DNA from: an uncultured Solirubrobacterales bacterium
Lineage (GTDB): Bacteria > Actinomycetota > Thermoleophilia > Solirubrobacterales > JACPNS01
Assembly: GCA_937128795.1 (NCBI GenBank)
Contig: CAKZMQ010000021.1
Coordinates: 30,577-94,576, forward strand
Direction of reading: 5' to 3'
Length of the DNA stretch: 64,000 nucleotides
This document shows, piece by piece, positions 1,548 through 17,033 of the stretch. The position numbers and the translations under genes are program-made. Each line of letters starts with the position of its first letter. Positions within the stretch are counted from its first letter, which is position 1. The notes below the pieces were generated by a model. It did no database searches and was not told the origin of the DNA. It was given only the letters and a program-made list of their open reading frames with translations.

Positions 1548-5633
<4,086 letters not shown>

Positions 5634-5718: not shown

Positions 5719-5973
5719 ATGGTCGTTATAACATCCGTTATACTGAACGACGTGGAACTGAAGATCACACAAATCGGGAACTCCCTGGGAGTGATCCTCC
5801 CCAAGGAACTGCTCGCCAAGCTCAAGGTTGAGAAGGGCGACTCCCTGCACGTGCTCGAAACGAAGGACGGCGTCGAGCTGACGCCGTTCGATCCCGAGTT
5901 CGCGAACCGCATGGATCGGGTCGAGCGCATCATGCGCGAGAACCGCAACCTGCTCAAGCGACTCGCGGAGTAG
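5719..5973 (+). CDS. AbrB/MazE/SpoVT-fold antitoxin (Phd-like partner of Doc)
   Basis: ORF 5665..5973. The start was moved to the Met at 5719, which is preceded by AGGAGG. The sequence VELKITQIGNSLGVILPKELLAKLKVEKGDSLHVLETKDGVELTPFDPEF is a typical swapped-hairpin AbrB-type DNA-binding domain. The doc gene begins 4 nt after its stop. Confidence 0.8.
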   Translation: MVVITSVILNDVELKITQIGNSLGVILPKELLAKLKVEKGDSLHVLETKDGVELTPFDPEFANRMDRVERIMRENRNLLKRLAE

Positions 5974-5977
5974 TTCC

Positions 5978-6364
5978 ATGACTGAGATCAAATGGCTCCG
6001 CACAGTCGATGTGCTCGGAGCACACAAACTGCTGATCGAATTCAGCGGCGGCAGCGACGGGGTTAGAGATGAGGGGTTGCTCGAATCGGCGCTCGCCCGA
6101 CCACGCAACATTCACGCCTACGAGCCAGATGCACCACTCACAAAGCTCGCCGCTGCATACGGATACGGAATCGCCAACAACCACCCGTTCGTGGATGGCA
6201 ACAAACGGGCTGCGTTCGTCGCGATCGAGTTGTTTCTGGACCTCCATGGCATCACGATCGACGCGTCGGAGGAAGACAAGTACGCGACGATGATCGGCCT
6301 GGCCGCTGGCGATCTGAGTGAAGACGCGCTCTCTGAGTGGTTGAGCGAGCACTGTCATCCGTGA
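5978..6364 (+). CDS. doc: Doc (death-on-curing) family Fic-fold toxin
   Basis: 128 aa with the Doc/Fic signature HPFVDGNKRAAF. It also has the typical N-terminal context (GVRDEGLLESALARP) and is tightly coupled to the upstream antitoxin. Confidence 0.88.
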   Translation: MTEIKWLRTVDVLGAHKLLIEFSGGSDGVRDEGLLESALARPRNIHAYEPDAPLTKLAAAYGYGIANNHPFVDGNKRAAFVAIELFLDLHGITIDASEEDKYATMIGLAAGDLSEDALSEWLSEHCHP

Positions 6365-7387: not shown

Positions 7388-8878
7388 TCAAGCCCGCTGC
7401 TCAAACCATCGCTTGGTCTTGAGATCCTGAAATACGACGGCGTTGCTGCCGCCCTTGAGCACCAGCTCGAAGTAGCGGCGTCTGACCGGACTGCCCGTCC
7501 ACCAACGATCCTCCACCACCCAGCGCTCGCGCTCCTGATCGACCGGGTGACCGCGCAGCGCCAGCGGGTTGCCGTCGCCGTCGGCGCGCAGTTGGGCTGG
7601 CTTGGGGCGACCGAGCGGCACCGGCCCGGGCGAGAGTGCGGTGCGGCGCTCGGGCAGGCGCGAGCCCTCGTTCATCCGCACGACGCGCGCGACCTTCTGC
7701 GGTGAACCGGCCGCTTGACGGGCCTGCTCGGAGGCGACCTTCAGGCGGCGTTTGCGCTCGGCGGGTGAATCCTCGTGCAGCAGCGTCAAGACCTCGTGGT
7801 CGAGCGGCCCGAAGCCGTCGACGGTGAACTCCAGCGCAGACGCGGGCTCGGGTAGTTCGAGCAGTTTGCGCTCGGCGACCAGTTTGATGCGCACGGGGTC
7901 GGCGGTCGGTTCGCGCATCAGGCCGCGCGTGCTCCATGAGCCGCCCTCGATGAAGCTGGTGTGCAGCGTGAAGCCGCGCAGCGTACGGCCAGCGCGCTCG
8001 GGGCGTGCGAGCAGGCGCTCGATCAACAGCGTCAGCGCGCGTTCGAGATCGCCGGCCATCGCACCTTGTGCGTTCCTCGCCTGACCTTCGGCATCGTCGA
8101 TCAGCTCGATCCGCTCGCTCAGGCGCTCGGCGGGCCGGCGCGGGCGCAGTGGTGGCTCTTGTCCGTAGATGAGGTCGCGCGCCGTCAACCCGACGCGGCC
8201 GAATCGTTCGGCCACCTGGGCGCGACGCAGCACCGCGAACTCACCGAGCGTCTCGATGCCGAGCTTCTCCAGCGTCGCGGCCAGCTGCTCGCACTGTTTC
8301 GAGTAGAGCGCAAGCCAGCCGACCGGCGCGTTGGCGAGAAACTCGCGCCGCTCAAGATCGTTGCCGATCACCCGTGGCTTGCGCGGACGCGCCGTACGCG
8401 CTGCGGCCAACGCGATGAACCTCGTCTCGGCCGCACCGATCCTGACCGGTCGACCGATCGCGTCGCGCACGGCCGCGATAACTCCGTCGAAGCCACGGTG
8501 CAGCGGTTCGAGTCCGGCGGATTCGAAGAACACCGTGCCCGGTTTGTCGGGATCGCTCTCGACCTCGGTGCCGATGTTCTCGAGCGCGCGCAGCACGGCC
8601 TCCCACCCATTCGCGGCGGCGACCGGATCCGGTGGCACCAACTTCAGCTGTGGGCAACGCGCGAATGCCTCGCCGACCGACAGACCCGGAGTGACAGCAA
8701 AGGCCTCGGCCGCCGCCGAGACCTGCCCGATCACCGCGCGACCCGTCGGGGGTGGGGCGAGGGCGATCGGTTGCTGCATCAAGGCCGCTGCGACTTCGGC
8801 GTGCCCGCCGGTCGTGCGAGAGCCGGGCACGCACGAATCGGCCGAAGCAGCAACCATCAGCTCAAAACGAGGGAGCAT
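7388..8878 (-). CDS. imuB: ImuB, Y-family-polymerase-like component of the ImuB/DnaE2 mutasome
   Basis: ORF 7388..8974. The Y-family-like N-terminus starts MLPRFELMVAA... The start is set at the Met at 8878 because the upstream 32 codons would contain the LexA box. The gene is close to dnaE2. Confidence 0.8.
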   Translation of the reverse strand: MLPRFELMVAASADSCVPGSRTTGGHAEVAAALMQQPIALAPPPTGRAVIGQVSAAAEAFAVTPGLSVGEAFARCPQLKLVPPDPVAAANGWEAVLRALENIGTEVESDPDKPGTVFFESAGLEPLHRGFDGVIAAVRDAIGRPVRIGAAETRFIALAAARTARPRKPRVIGNDLERREFLANAPVGWLALYSKQCEQLAATLEKLGIETLGEFAVLRRAQVAERFGRVGLTARDLIYGQEPPLRPRRPAERLSERIELIDDAEGQARNAQGAMAGDLERALTLLIERLLARPERAGRTLRGFTLHTSFIEGGSWSTRGLMREPTADPVRIKLVAERKLLELPEPASALEFTVDGFGPLDHEVLTLLHEDSPAERKRRLKVASEQARQAAGSPQKVARVVRMNEGSRLPERRTALSPGPVPLGRPKPAQLRADGDGNPLALRGHPVDQERERWVVEDRWWTGSPVRRRYFELVLKGGSNAVVFQDLKTKRWFEQRA

Positions 8879-8895
8879 TACGCATACAACAGACA

Positions 8896-8909
8896 CGAAC
8901 GTATGTTCG
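8896..8909. promoter_or_regulatory. LexA (SOS) box CGAACGTATGTTCG upstream of imuB
   Basis: CGAAC-N4-GTTCG palindrome 18 bp upstream of the imuB ATG. The extended 18-nt context GACACGAAC(G/A)TATGTTCG is shared with the dnaE2 box apart from one base. TTGACA (a -35-like element on the minus strand) lies just upstream, within the palindrome TGACAAGACATTGTCA (8915-8930). Confidence 0.75.
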
Positions 8910-8953
8910 CATACTGACAAGACATTGTCAAGTGGGCCTGCGAGATCCGGGGC

Positions 8954-9287
8954 TTGCAAGGTCCGAGGTTGCAAGCGGGATCAGTGCGTGACGTTCGTGG
9001 ATTGCTGCGAGGGTGGGTTGACTTTCGTTTGGCACCGATGGGGTGAGGCGGTTGGTTGTGGTGCGGGCCGATCTCGTTGGGGATCGACGTAGTGTGAATC
9101 GGTGGCCCTGATTGCAATGGGGTGTTTTGGTCCAGGAGTCCCCCGGCGGGGGAGTCTTGGACCATTTTGCCCCATCGGAATCACCACCACCAATCAGCCC
9201 ATTCCCTTTTCGGTGCCCAAACGAAAGTCAACCTGCGCCCCGCATCAAACCCCAACCAGATCCCGCTTGCAACCTCGGACCTTGCAA
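8954..9287. repeat. 334-bp long imperfect palindrome with 29-bp perfect terminal inverted repeats (MITE-like element or structured RNA locus)
   Basis: Left end ttgcaaggtccgaggttgcaagcgggatc (8954-8982) is the exact reverse complement of 9259-9287. An internal 22-bp block, gttgactttcgtttggcaccga (9017-9038), matches tcggtgcccaaacgaaagtcaac (9210-9232). The centre, ggtccaggagtcccccggcgggggagtcttggacc, is itself a near-palindrome. Each terminus also contains its own small hairpin (CTTGCAA-N9-TTGCAAG). No convincing ORF is present. Confidence 0.85.
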
Positions 9288-9302
9288 AGGAAAAGGGAAT
9301 TG

Positions 9303-9335
9303 GGCAAAGAGAAAGACCCGGCGTTTGGCCGGGTC
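9303..9335 (-). terminator. Putative intrinsic terminator (minus strand), about 220 nt downstream of dxs
   Basis: Stem GACCCGGC / GCCGGGTC (9315-9322 and 9328-9335) with a 5-nt loop. On the minus strand it is followed by tttctctttg. Confidence 0.55.
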
Positions 9336-9554
9336 TGATCTCTGGGGAGGATACTGCTGTGTCTCTGGGTCGTCTCGTACTTGGGGGAGAGAGACGCCCT
9401 GGAGAAGTCGTGTCCGATAAAACTTGGAGGCGACTTCCGTATCTGGTGGTAAAGATAGGCCTCGTTGTGTGATGTGTGTGTGAGATTGCTCACACTTGCA
9501 CAAAGTACTTACGTCTCGGTATCCCGCTCCTGATGCGGGTTGACGGCAGTCCGT

Positions 9555-11540
9555 TTAGGCGTCGCTGGGCGTCTTCGACGCCATTCGTTCTGTGATGCGT
9601 CGTGCGACGGCATCGGCGGTGAAGCCGATCTCTTCGTGTAAAAGCTTGGGTGCGCCGTGCGTTATGTAGCGGTCCGGAATGCCCACGCGCAATGTCGAGA
9701 CGGGCAACGCGTTGTCGGCCAAATGCTCGATCACTCCCGAACCAAATCCACCGGCCAGCGCACCCTCCTCGAGCGTCACAAGCAGCTCGTGTTCGGCGGC
9801 GAGCTCGTTGACCAGCTCGGTGTCGAGTGGCTTCGCGAATCGCGCATCGGCGACCGTGGCGGACACTCCCTGTTCGGCGAGCACGCCGGCCGCGCCTTGC
9901 GCCACCCCGACGCCGGTTCCGTATCCAAGTAGCGCGACACTTCCGTCACCACGCGACAACACCTCGCCCACACCAACGTCGATCGCAGTGGGCGATTTCG
10001 GCAATGGCACACCAACGCCCTCGCCCCGCGGATAGCGGATCGCCACCGGGCCATCGTCGTGGAGCAACGCCGTGTGCAGCATGTCCACAAGCACAGCCTC
10101 GTCGCGCGGCGCCATCAAGATGATGTTCGGCAACGGGCGTAGATAGGAGATGTCAAATGCGCCGTGGTGCGTCGGGCCGTCGTCGCCGACCAGTCCCGCG
10201 CGATCCATCGCGAAAACGACGTTCAACTTCTGCAGGCAGACGTCGTGAACAATTTGATCGAAGCCGCGCTGCAAGAAGGTCGAGTAGACAGCAACCACAG
10301 GCTTCACGCCCTGCAATGCGAGTCCGGAAGCGAACAAGACTGCGTGTTGCTCGGCAATGCCTACGTCGAAGTAGTGCTCTGGCATTTCTTTCTGCAGGAT
10401 CGAAAGACCGGTGCCGGAATTCATCGCCGCCGTGATGCCGACCACGCGTTCGTCGCGCTTGCATTCGGCCACCAACGCTTCGCCGAAGACCTTGGTGTAT
10501 TGCGGCGGCGCTTTTTTCATCGCCGCTCCGTTGGTGGTCGATTTAGCCGGTGCCGCGGTCGGCTTGCGGTCGGTGATGCCCTTCGGCTTCACCGCGTGCC
10601 ATTGCTCCATTCCTTCGAGTCCACCCTCTTCGGCCGGCGCGAATCCCTTTCCTTTGACCGTCGCGATATGGACGACGACGGGGCGGTCTGCTGCCAGAGC
10701 TTCCTCGATCGCCGGGCGTAGCTCGCTGACGTCATGCCCGTCGATCACGCCGATGTATGCGAAGTCGAGCTCCTCCCAGAACAATCCGGGCGCCCAGAAG
10801 GCCTTGACGGATTCCTTGAATTGGGGGCCGAAGCGTTCGAACGCCGCGCCGATACCTGCCGGTAGTTTGGTGAGCGCACTTTCCGCACCGTCACGCGCCT
10901 TGTAGAGCTTCGGATTCATGCGAACCCGATTGAAGTAGCGCGAGAGCGCCCCAACGTTTGGTGAGATCGACATGCCGTTGTCGTTGAGAATCACGACGAT
11001 CGGCGAACCCAGGCCACCTGCATTGTGGATCGCCTCAAAGGCGACGCCTCCGGTCATCGAGCCGTCACCGATTACGGCAACAACCTTGCCGTCGGGTCCG
11101 CTGCCCATCCGCATCGCCTCTTTGAGGCCCACGGCGTATGAAATCGATGTCGAAGCGTGCCCCGCCCCCATGATGTCGTGCTCACTCTCAAAGCGTGCGC
11201 AAAACGGCGCAAGCCCGTCGTACTTGCGGATCGTGGGAAGCTGATCGCGTCGGCCGGTGAGAATCTTGTGGGGATAGGCCTGATGTCCGACGTCCCAGAG
11301 GATCTTGTCGGTCGGTGAATCAAGCAGCGCATGCAGCACCACTGACAGCTCGCAAACGCCGAGGTTCGCGCCGAAGTGTCCGCCGATCTCGCCGACCGTG
11401 TCGATCAGCTCTTCGCGGACTTCCTGGGCTATCTGTTGGAGCTGCTGGTCGTCGAGACCCGAGAGGTCATCGGGTCCGTCGACGCCGGACAGCAACGAGC
11501 CCGACGGCAAAGCGTTTTCGTTGGATTTTGATTTCGCCAA
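9555..11540 (-). CDS. dxs: 1-deoxy-D-xylulose-5-phosphate synthase
   Basis: 661 aa. Contains the TPP-binding motifs GHFGANLG, WDVGHQAYPHKILTGR and IGDGSMTGGVAFEA. The transketolase-like C-terminus reads ITAAMNSGTGL and DVGIAEQHAV. Confidence 0.95.
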   Translation of the reverse strand: MAKSKSNENALPSGSLLSGVDGPDDLSGLDDQQLQQIAQEVREELIDTVGEIGGHFGANLGVCELSVVLHALLDSPTDKILWDVGHQAYPHKILTGRRDQLPTIRKYDGLAPFCARFESEHDIMGAGHASTSISYAVGLKEAMRMGSGPDGKVVAVIGDGSMTGGVAFEAIHNAGGLGSPIVVILNDNGMSISPNVGALSRYFNRVRMNPKLYKARDGAESALTKLPAGIGAAFERFGPQFKESVKAFWAPGLFWEELDFAYIGVIDGHDVSELRPAIEEALAADRPVVVHIATVKGKGFAPAEEGGLEGMEQWHAVKPKGITDRKPTAAPAKSTTNGAAMKKAPPQYTKVFGEALVAECKRDERVVGITAAMNSGTGLSILQKEMPEHYFDVGIAEQHAVLFASGLALQGVKPVVAVYSTFLQRGFDQIVHDVCLQKLNVVFAMDRAGLVGDDGPTHHGAFDISYLRPLPNIILMAPRDEAVLVDMLHTALLHDDGPVAIRYPRGEGVGVPLPKSPTAIDVGVGEVLSRGDGSVALLGYGTGVGVAQGAAGVLAEQGVSATVADARFAKPLDTELVNELAAEHELLVTLEEGALAGGFGSGVIEHLADNALPVSTLRVGIPDRYITHGAPKLLHEEIGFTADAVARRITERMASKTPSDA

Positions 11541-15932: not shown

Positions 15933-17033
15933 TCAATCGACGACGAGTAGTTGTTTTTCAAACGGTGTCAGCACTCGCGGTCCGTCGTCGGCGACCACCA
16001 CAAGATCTTCGATCCGCACCCCGAACTCACCCGGCAAGTAGATGCCGGGTTCAACGGTGACGACATTTCCCAGTTCGAGCACGTCCTTCGAGCGCGAAGA
16101 GAGCGTCGGCAGTTCATGCACTTCCACGCCCACACCGTGCCCGGTGCTGTGACCGAACTGATCCGCATATCCCGCCGCGTCGATCACGTCTCTGGCAGAT
16201 TTGTCGATCAACTGGCACTCAACGCCCTCGGCGATTTGCGCGAGTGCGGTTCGCTGCGCATCGAGCACGATGTCGTAAATCTCGCGCGCGTGACCATCCA
16301 CGTTTCCAGATGCAAACGTTCGCGTGCAGTCCGAGCAGTAGCCGTCGAACACGACGCCAAGGTCTAGAACCACCAACTCCCCGTCGCCGATCTTTCGATC
16401 GCGCGGCTCGGCGTGCGGCAGCGCGCCGTGTGGGCCGCCAGCGACGATCGGTGGGAATGAAAGCCCACTGGCTCCGCGCTCCCGGGCAAGCCACTCGATG
16501 CGCCAGGCGACATCCTTTTCGCTTCTTCCAGCGAGACCCTCCTCGGAAATCGTTGAGTAGATCGAATCGGCGATCGCAGCAGCTCGGGCGATCGCGTCGA
16601 TTTCGTCCGCATCCTTGACTGCGCGCAGCTTTTCGACAACGCCGGCGGCGGCGACCAATTCAGTCCCCTCAGAGAGTTCCTCGACCAACGCAGCGTGATT
16701 TTTGACGCGCATGTCGGCATCGTCAAAACCGACCTTCGCTCGGGTGTTCATCCGTTCGGCCAACCGCTTGCGCGGAGTTTCACCGCCGTCGATCACTTCG
16801 AAATCAGGAGATTGGTCGGCAGCCTGTTCGACGTAGCGAAAGTCGGTCAGCAGGTAGGCGTCGTCGGGGTCGATCAAAAGTGTGCCATTAGTGCCGGTGA
16901 ACGCCGAGAGGTAACGCACGTTTTCTTTGCCCGACACCAGTAAGGCGTCGAGACCGTCGGTGGCGATCAGCTCGCGAAGCCGACCGATTCGCTCAATCGA
17001 CCTACTCATCGCCATCGACCGCTTGTTCGGCAT
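15933..17033 (-). CDS. pepQ: Xaa-Pro aminopeptidase / dipeptidase (M24B family)
   Basis: Creatinase-like N-domain plus an M24 catalytic domain with metal ligands in context (DLGVVFDGYCSDCTRTF, HSTGHGVGVEVHE, TVEPGIYLPGEFGVRIED). The true start may be one of the Met codons at 17015 or 17009. Confidence 0.9.
   Translation of the reverse strand: MPNKRSMAMSRSIERIGRLRELIATDGLDALLVSGKENVRYLSAFTGTNGTLLIDPDDAYLLTDFRYVEQAADQSPDFEVIDGGETPRKRLAERMNTRAKVGFDDADMRVKNHAALVEELSEGTELVAAAGVVEKLRAVKDADEIDAIARAAAIADSIYSTISEEGLAGRSEKDVAWRIEWLARERGASGLSFPPIVAGGPHGALPHAEPRDRKIGDGELVVLDLGVVFDGYCSDCTRTFASGNVDGHAREIYDIVLDAQRTALAQIAEGVECQLIDKSARDVIDAAGYADQFGHSTGHGVGVEVHELPTLSSRSKDVLELGNVVTVEPGIYLPGEFGVRIEDLVVVADDGPRVLTPFEKQLLVVD

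Follow-up and report, generated by a model that had tools for sequence, protein, structure and literature searches.

The DNA examined in this work, referred to as the window, is a stretch of 64,000 nucleotides (64 kb) from an uncultured Solirubrobacterales bacterium, and the feature under study is a long imperfect palindrome of 334 bp located between dxs and imuB. On the minus strand the features follow each other in the order dxs, terminator-like hairpin, palindromic element, LexA box, imuB, cation-efflux gene, Fic/MazE genes and dnaE2 (Table 1). The motif in the imuB promoter is taken to be a LexA/Cheo-type box by reference to the established consensus; it is conserved in all imuB relatives and lies 44 nt from the end of the element in the window, in agreement with a preliminary description of this DNA that had placed the palindrome directly upstream of the imuB promoter. 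The same description had located the element where imuA' would normally be found, which was not borne out since no imuA' is present here or in any relative, the cassette in relatives being composed of imuB, a CDF gene, Fic/MazE and dnaE2. A fatty-acid desaturase gene precedes imuB in all relatives whose contigs reach far enough on that side, and the possibility that the element replaces imuA' was rejected, imuA' being absent there from every relative.

Table 1. Coordinates of the palindromic element, its modules and the neighbouring features in the window.
Feature	Position	Strand	Description
imuB	7388..8878	-	496 aa, ATG at 8878; relatives named 'protein ImuB'; Pfam PF00817
Presumed LexA/Cheo-type box of the imuB promoter	8896..8909	-	CGAAC-N4-GTTCG, read in the sequence as CGAACGTATGTTCG
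Whole foldback element	8954..9287	.	334 bp, copy-A sequence type; limits from the ends of similarity with copies A and B, nhmmer matches and folds
Left terminal inverted repeat (module T)	8954..8982	+	TTGCAA-N9-TTGCAA at 8954-8974
Left-arm part missing from the 244-bp copy (L003)	8983..9077	.	left M block and arm-specific extra sequence
Inner conserved block M, left copy	9016..9038	+	GGTTGACTTTCGTTTGGCACCGA; inverted-repeat comparison
Core hairpin (module C)	9098..9194	.	apex 9145-9147; z = -6.6 and -6.2
Inner conserved block M, right copy	9210..9233	-	inverted-repeat comparison
Right terminal inverted repeat (module T)	9259..9287	-	TTGCAA-N9-TTGCAA at 9267-9287
Intrinsic-terminator-like hairpin and T run	9314..9336	-	closes the dxs unit, 27 nt before the element
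dxs	9555..11510	-	651 aa as called in L001 and L041

Some minor features were noted in the sequences flanking the element. On the minus strand, the arrangement TTGACA...TTGTCAGTA-N8-TACGTT (8899-8931) overlaps the LexA box and resembles the actinobacterial RecA-NDp/PafBC promoter motif; its TTGTCAGTA part is not conserved upstream of imuB in the relatives L005, L037, L038, L042 and L043, where the LexA box is. On the other side, about 218 nt (9337-9554) to which no feature is assigned separate the dxs stop from the terminator-like hairpin and include a possible 37-codon ORF with a GTG start behind GGAGGA (9361-9474, plus strand), while the stretch 9299-9495 gave sub-threshold Rfam matches (Yfr1 with E=0.07; suhB and SorX over the terminator).

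The overall architecture given in the preliminary description, that of a long imperfect palindrome with perfect 29-bp ends, was confirmed. The terminal repeats are 100% complementary over their 29 bp and, when the 29-mer was searched with at most 3 mismatches, the two arms were its only two matches in the 64 kb, shuffled sequences being expected to give 0. The inner block, previously seen as a second conserved block with one indel, is a perfect inverted repeat over 17 bp (9016-9032 with 9217-9233) that reaches about 9038/9210 with the indel included; no further occurrence of the inner 17-mer was found in the 64 kb even with mismatches, none being expected in shuffles. Perfect inverted repeats of at least 17 bp were found in the window solely within 8954-9287. 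The centre (9129-9163) reads ggtccaggagtccccc-ggc-gggggagtcttggacc and is near-palindromic as had been stated, the central palindrome as a whole (9098-9194) having a complementarity of 73%. The left arm, at 192 nt, is 51 nt longer than the right one (141 nt), close to the 50 nt or so that had been estimated, and a global alignment of one arm to the other gave 120 matches, 18 mismatches and 57 gap columns.

The TTGCAA hexamer is concentrated in the element, with 5 of the 11 copies of the window inside the 334 bp for 0.04 expected. Each terminus had been credited with a small hairpin of its own, CTTGCAA-N9-TTGCAAG. Both motifs are indeed present, but on the right CTTGCAA-N9-TTGCAA is followed by A and not G, and the terminal hairpins, folded alone, did not exceed shuffles in stability (z = -1.3 and -0.4), the real signal at the termini being that of the hexamer.

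Folding of both strands, which had been proposed together with the palindrome, gave structures far more stable than those of shuffled sequences, with -217 kcal/mol against about -143 for the plus strand (z = -13.7) and -201 against about -126 kcal/mol for the minus strand (z = -14.0). This very stable fold is what speaks for one of the explanations put forward beforehand, namely a long-hairpin structured RNA or, alternatively, a convergent-transcription or antisense locus. The plus strand folds better by 16 kcal/mol since 7 of the 9 mismatches of transition type between its arms are present there as G-T, and wobble preserves plus-strand pairing at 3 of the 5 differences between the two copies A and B presented below; as a sign of RNA, this strand asymmetry is suggestive only, and the 7:2 split of the mismatches is not significant. 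Against an RNA locus, no Rfam family matched over the element at gathering score or E<=1 and a consensus scan detected no promoter-like site inside it. Covariation analysis of the core hairpin in both orientations showed no pair changed on both sides, although the six sequences used are too few and too similar to one another for this to be decisive. The orientation of the element relative to the neighbouring genes is not conserved either. With no Rfam match and no compensatory changes, the data do not speak for the structured-RNA candidate, and this reading, including its antisense variant, is very improbable.

A TTGACT in block M was also considered as a -35 box and rejected, the corresponding sequence being CTGACT in L003 and ATGACT in L001. 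As for coding capacity, the concatenated six-frame translation of the element compared with 5.8 billion proteins yielded 0 matches at E<=10, in accordance with the earlier statement that no credible ORF is present.

It had further been proposed to look for other copies of the palindrome, and such copies were found at other loci. Contigs encoding exactly the ImuB and the Dxs of the window were retrieved from one metagenome assembly (ENA ERZ928089), which contains two complete and slightly different copies of the 334-bp element. Copy B (L040) has the arrangement desaturase-CTGCC-[334 bp]-imuB; its contig matches the window at 99.9% identity between 9287 and 4388, all 5 differences being within the element, and beyond the outer terminus it runs into the stop codon of the fatty-acid desaturase and not into dxs. 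Copy A (L041) is arranged as dxs-terminator-[334 bp]-GGACT, and its contig reproduces window positions 16510 to 8955 with a single base changed, inside the element (window 9077), splits from it at the terminal base 8954 and goes on with GGACT and the contig end instead of the imuB flank. Since both contigs come from ERZ928089, this population carries the element twice, as copy A following dxs and as copy B preceding imuB. In a strain with 98% identity (L001), the order dxs-terminator-element is also seen, and the contig stops inside the palindrome.

A third context was provided by a Solirubrobacterales MAG (GCA_049608465.1, contig L003), in which a 244-bp copy (1272-1515) fills the gap between the stop codons of convergent SDR and Mrp/ParA-type ATPase genes. 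Over 214 nt this copy shares 91.6% identity with the window, and it has no counterpart of window 8983-9077. In all three contexts the similarity ends exactly at the TTGCAAGG...CCTTGCAA termini; the left-type T terminus was found in L040, L041, L001, L003 and L042, and the core of block M, CGAAAGTC, is kept in L001, L003, L037, L038 and L042. No target-site duplication was detected at these sites, where the flanks are CTGCC/GCCCC for copy B, TTCCT/GGACT for copy A and GCCCC/GCGGC for L003, and the left flanks CTGCC, TTCCT and GCCCC show no clear shared target. A one-off local inverted duplication, which the preliminary description had set down beforehand as the outcome contrary to its claims, accounts for nothing beyond the palindromic shape and is excluded by these independent copies with the same ends; together with its variant, a decayed inverted duplication of a gene, against which stands the lack of protein similarity in any frame, it has a practically negligible probability.

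Searches on a larger scale returned few additional sequences. The exact 22-mer of the terminus was looked for in 185,579 GTDB species representatives, and the sole true match was L003; an Acidobacteriaceae match (L004) was rejected as a chance hit in a CTTGCA-rich stretch. The same exact search disclosed no autonomous element sharing these ends in the 185,579 genomes, a result that diverged ends would escape. Viral contigs scanned with the terminus and with the core gave 0 matches, blastn against plasmid and phage collections gave none, and the 29 loci found metagenome-wide with the core 19-mer TTGGTGGNGGTGATTCCGAT were all chance matches devoid of extended similarity. No further copies turned up in the 64 kb of the window or in the remainder of the loci retrieved. 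The copy number is consequently very low, with at most 2 copies seen per genome, a count that is underestimated because MAG assemblies break at the palindrome.

The comparison with copies A and B also bears on the junction of the window itself. Five positions tell A and B apart, and the window has the A-type variant at each of them although its element adjoins the imuB flank; the dxs-element-imuB arrangement was seen in no other assembly examined, and in ERZ928089 the identical dxs and imuB flanks are on separate contigs, each with its own element copy (junction landmarks: window 8954 and 9287; L040 2587-2592; L041 7556-7561). An A-type element joined to the imuB flank implies that the junction of the window arose either by recombination of A with B, the crossover falling in the last 115 or so identical bases, or as a chimeric assembly across the repeat. 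As MAG assemblies break at the palindrome, the junction may be an artefact, and the adjacency of dxs and imuB in the window should be read as a possibly chimeric or recombinant join.

Upstream of imuB, parts of the element were found next to the LexA box in 7 of 7 lineages with 82-100% ImuB identity, while the modules kept, their orientation and their distance from the LexA box (13 to 44 nt) vary among close relatives. The core hairpin is the sole module kept, and is inverted, in L005 (ImuB 94%) and in L044, which comes from the same MAG as L003 and whose core of about 95 nt separates the desaturase stop codon from the imuB promoter; in these two the hairpin begins right after the desaturase stop and is followed on the sense strand by ACTTTGT, a terminator-like configuration. 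L042 (ImuB 84%) is also inverted, with its T terminus just 13 nt from the LexA box. L037 (83%) has an arm with the M block and without T, L043 (83%) has a short core-proximal piece only, and the contig of L038 (82%) starts at the palindrome centre, with a proximal arm of 76% identity in the window orientation and no T terminus. In L006, L007 and L039 (ImuB 72-74%) there was no trace of the element, and the spacer holds other hairpins, short repeats or an IS1595 insertion. Parts being present throughout the clade with at least 82% ImuB identity, the element would have been at the imuB site since the ancestor of that clade, and since then it has lost modules and flipped its orientation, with further copies made at other sites in some lineages.

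The Logan contigs L005, L037, L038, L042 and L043 end 83-266 nt upstream of imuB, those of L038 and L005 at or near the palindrome centre, as expected of short-read assembly at a long palindrome or repeat. The repeat disrupts short-read assemblies just upstream of imuB in all the relatives examined, and the systematic break conceals the imuB-upstream region in MAGs. In the more distant relatives, the desaturase-imuB spacer is an insertion hot spot, with an IS1595-family transposase gene and small ORFs in L006 (2213-3145) and several unrelated GC-rich hairpins together with repeated GGAATTTGCGCAATTTGCG-like motifs in L007 (3714-4000) and L039 (2304-2498).

It was of interest to set the conservation of the element beside that of imuB. 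Identity to the window at four-fold degenerate sites of imuB was 0.80-0.83 for L005 and L044, 0.59 for L038 and 0.53 for L037, and that of the element was 91.6% for L003, 86-88% for the core in L005 and L044 and 76% for the arm in L038, the element values being inflated by the fact that BLAST aligns only similar parts. Judged from these identities, the element appears more conserved between species than the four-fold sites of imuB. Since the L003 figure spans nearly the whole copy, some constraint or a more recent common ancestry is likely, and the earlier suggestion that uneven conservation reflects constraint and not a recent duplication seems reasonable.

This conservation above the four-fold level, like the presence upstream of imuB across the clade with at least 82% identity, also fits a role specific to the locus. 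The element could accordingly be an ancestral cis module of the imuB upstream region that insulates against or terminates desaturase read-through, or a DNA structure modulating the SOS promoter, its other copies being secondary. Its parts lie just upstream of the LexA box in all 7 lineages, L005 and L044 have the terminator-like disposition after the desaturase stop, and other hairpins occupy the same place in more distant relatives. However, close relatives differ in modules, orientation and distance to the LexA box, L043 and L044 retain fragments only, copies A and L003 have identical ends and no imuB, the sense strand in the window orientation has no U run after the core, and no promoter was detected inside the element by the consensus scan. 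A cis module of imuB is for these reasons considered unlikely, and the proposal of a protein-binding architectural element next to the SOS promoter was not borne out, given the copies without imuB and the variable versions at imuB.

In a bolder form of the same idea, the palindrome would be a conserved, flip-flopping cruciform or hairpin module next to the LexA box that couples DNA structure, single-strand exposure or programmed inversion at TTGCAA-N9-TTGCAA to the expression of the error-prone polymerase, with the other copies as spin-offs. This scenario is improbable, and the persistent linkage to imuB at an above-neutral level of conservation gives a real regulatory or invertible module a slim residual chance.

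A related explanation takes the 29-bp repeats as recombination sites and the 276 bp between them as an invertible, phase-variable switch next to imuB. Invertons of the fimS or hin type are characterised by the presence of both orientations in one population and by a promoter inside the segment. As in these, perfect inverted repeats bound a segment of about 300 bp by a regulated gene and its promoter, and both orientations relative to imuB occur among relatives. Each repeat also has a TTGCAA-N9-TTGCAA dyad that might be a recombinase core site. In contrast to invertons, the interior of the element is palindromic, so that its inversion would change little, no promoter-like site lies within it, and there is no gene that copies A and L003 could switch. 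Moreover, the four assemblies of the species (window, L040, L041 and L001) show one and the same orientation relative to the flanks. A phase-variable switch is on these grounds scarcely probable.

With copies in other contexts whose boundaries fall exactly at the terminal inverted repeats, the candidate favoured among those proposed beforehand is a non-autonomous MITE/PATE-like element, and the palindrome was compared with the known classes of such elements. MITEs are typically shorter than 500 bp, lack a transposase gene and have TIRs of about 4-30 bp (PMC10969869, section 2.1); they are also multicopy and dispersed in intergenic regions, with flanking direct repeats, a related autonomous IS, AT-richness and a stem-loop transcript (PMC10969869), the direct repeats fading in old copies (PMC10969869). 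The copies studied here agree with this definition in size (334 bp and 244 bp) and in having no protein match in any frame, in their 29-bp perfect TIR with the same termini in L040, L041 and L003, and in their predicted stem-loop (z = -13.7 and -14.0). They depart from it in that the flanks of copies A, B and L003 have no shared duplication and that the GC content, 59.0% for the element and 62.3% for the window, does not amount to AT-richness. As for dispersal, the element occupies three intergenic contexts, with one copy in the 64 kb and one true match among the GTDB representatives.

Bacterial MITEs that fold back over their full length include the ERIC/IRU, Correia and Chunjie elements (PMC10969869, PMC3184786). 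Like them, the present element is shorter than 500 bp, non-coding and intergenic, with TIRs of about 30 bp, a very stable predicted stem-loop, size variants due to indels, partial copies lacking ends and a location near terminators or promoters. It differs from them by its 2 copies seen per genome instead of tens to hundreds and by being found without flanking direct repeats, AT-richness or a related insertion sequence. In the collections searched here, it matched no described family in sequence.

Two other classes share part of these properties. REPINs are formed of paired inverted REP hairpins mobilised by RAYT transposases, are about 100 nt long, occur in hundreds of copies and carry a GTAG-type tetranucleotide. 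As in REPINs, two inverted hairpin-capable motifs bound a long-hairpin unit that is intergenic, often between convergent genes, and has no target-site duplication; the element is on the other hand 244-334 bp long and low-copy, with a TTGCAA-N9-TTGCAA motif that occurs in the 64 kb only at its two ends, no GTAG and ordinary terminal hairpins. With the PATEs derived from IS200/IS605 it has in common the lack of target-site duplication, the end hairpins and the lack of coding capacity. In IS200/IS605 elements, the ends are not mutual inverted repeats and insertion takes place 3' of a fixed tetra- or pentanucleotide, whereas the ends of this element are perfect 29-bp inverted repeats and its left flanks differ.

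Taken together, the 334 bp are probably a copy of a low-copy, non-coding, modular foldback repeat of the MITE-like kind, confined to one uncultured clade of Solirubrobacterales (Thermoleophilia). Its anatomy comprises T modules (a 22-29-bp inverted repeat with TTGCAA-N9-TTGCAA), inner M blocks and the central hairpin C. A T-bounded unit of which copies have been made at three or more unrelated intergenic sites would behave like a non-autonomous mobile element, a foldback of MITE or ERIC type, and may have spread by transposition or by site-specific recombination acting on the T ends, the movement itself being deduced from the distribution of the copies. The lack of target duplication and the TTGCAA-N9-TTGCAA dyad at each tip leave room, by inference, for mobilisation by a recombinase or single-strand transposase instead of a DDE enzyme.

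For the host, a transcript reading through the MITE-like repeat would be predicted to fold into a very stable hairpin and, at most, the element might insulate the LexA-controlled imuB promoter from the upstream unit or terminate transcription between them. As a dispersed repeat it could also serve as a substrate for recombination and mediate rearrangements. Its effect at the host level is most likely incidental, that of a strong hairpin and a rearrangement-promoting repeat, and annotation of the palindrome as a regulatory feature of imuB or as a remnant of imuA' would be unwarranted. Read as a MITE-like repeat, it represents a family of foldback repeats not described before, in an actinobacterial order that has hardly been studied, and combines in an unusual way perfect TIRs, the absence of target duplication, a very low copy number and a conservation above the neutral level.

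Other observations concern the remainder of the imuB-dnaE2 cassette. Genes for a MazE-like antitoxin and a Fic-domain protein (window 5719-6364, plus strand) lie between the cation-efflux gene and dnaE2 and constitute a toxin-antitoxin-like pair inside the cassette, which is kept in L006, L040, L042 and L043 and absent from L044. The dnaE2 of the window codes for 1361 aa and includes an in-frame stretch of about 300 nt (2746-3042, minus strand) that is missing from L044, in which two hairpin-forming repeats (for instance 2771-2853, with 41-nt arms that are 80% complementary) encode a repeated PHALS; a GADRAD-type tandem repeat is found nearby. This dnaE2 stretch looks like an intragenic palindromic insertion of a family other than that of the foldback element.
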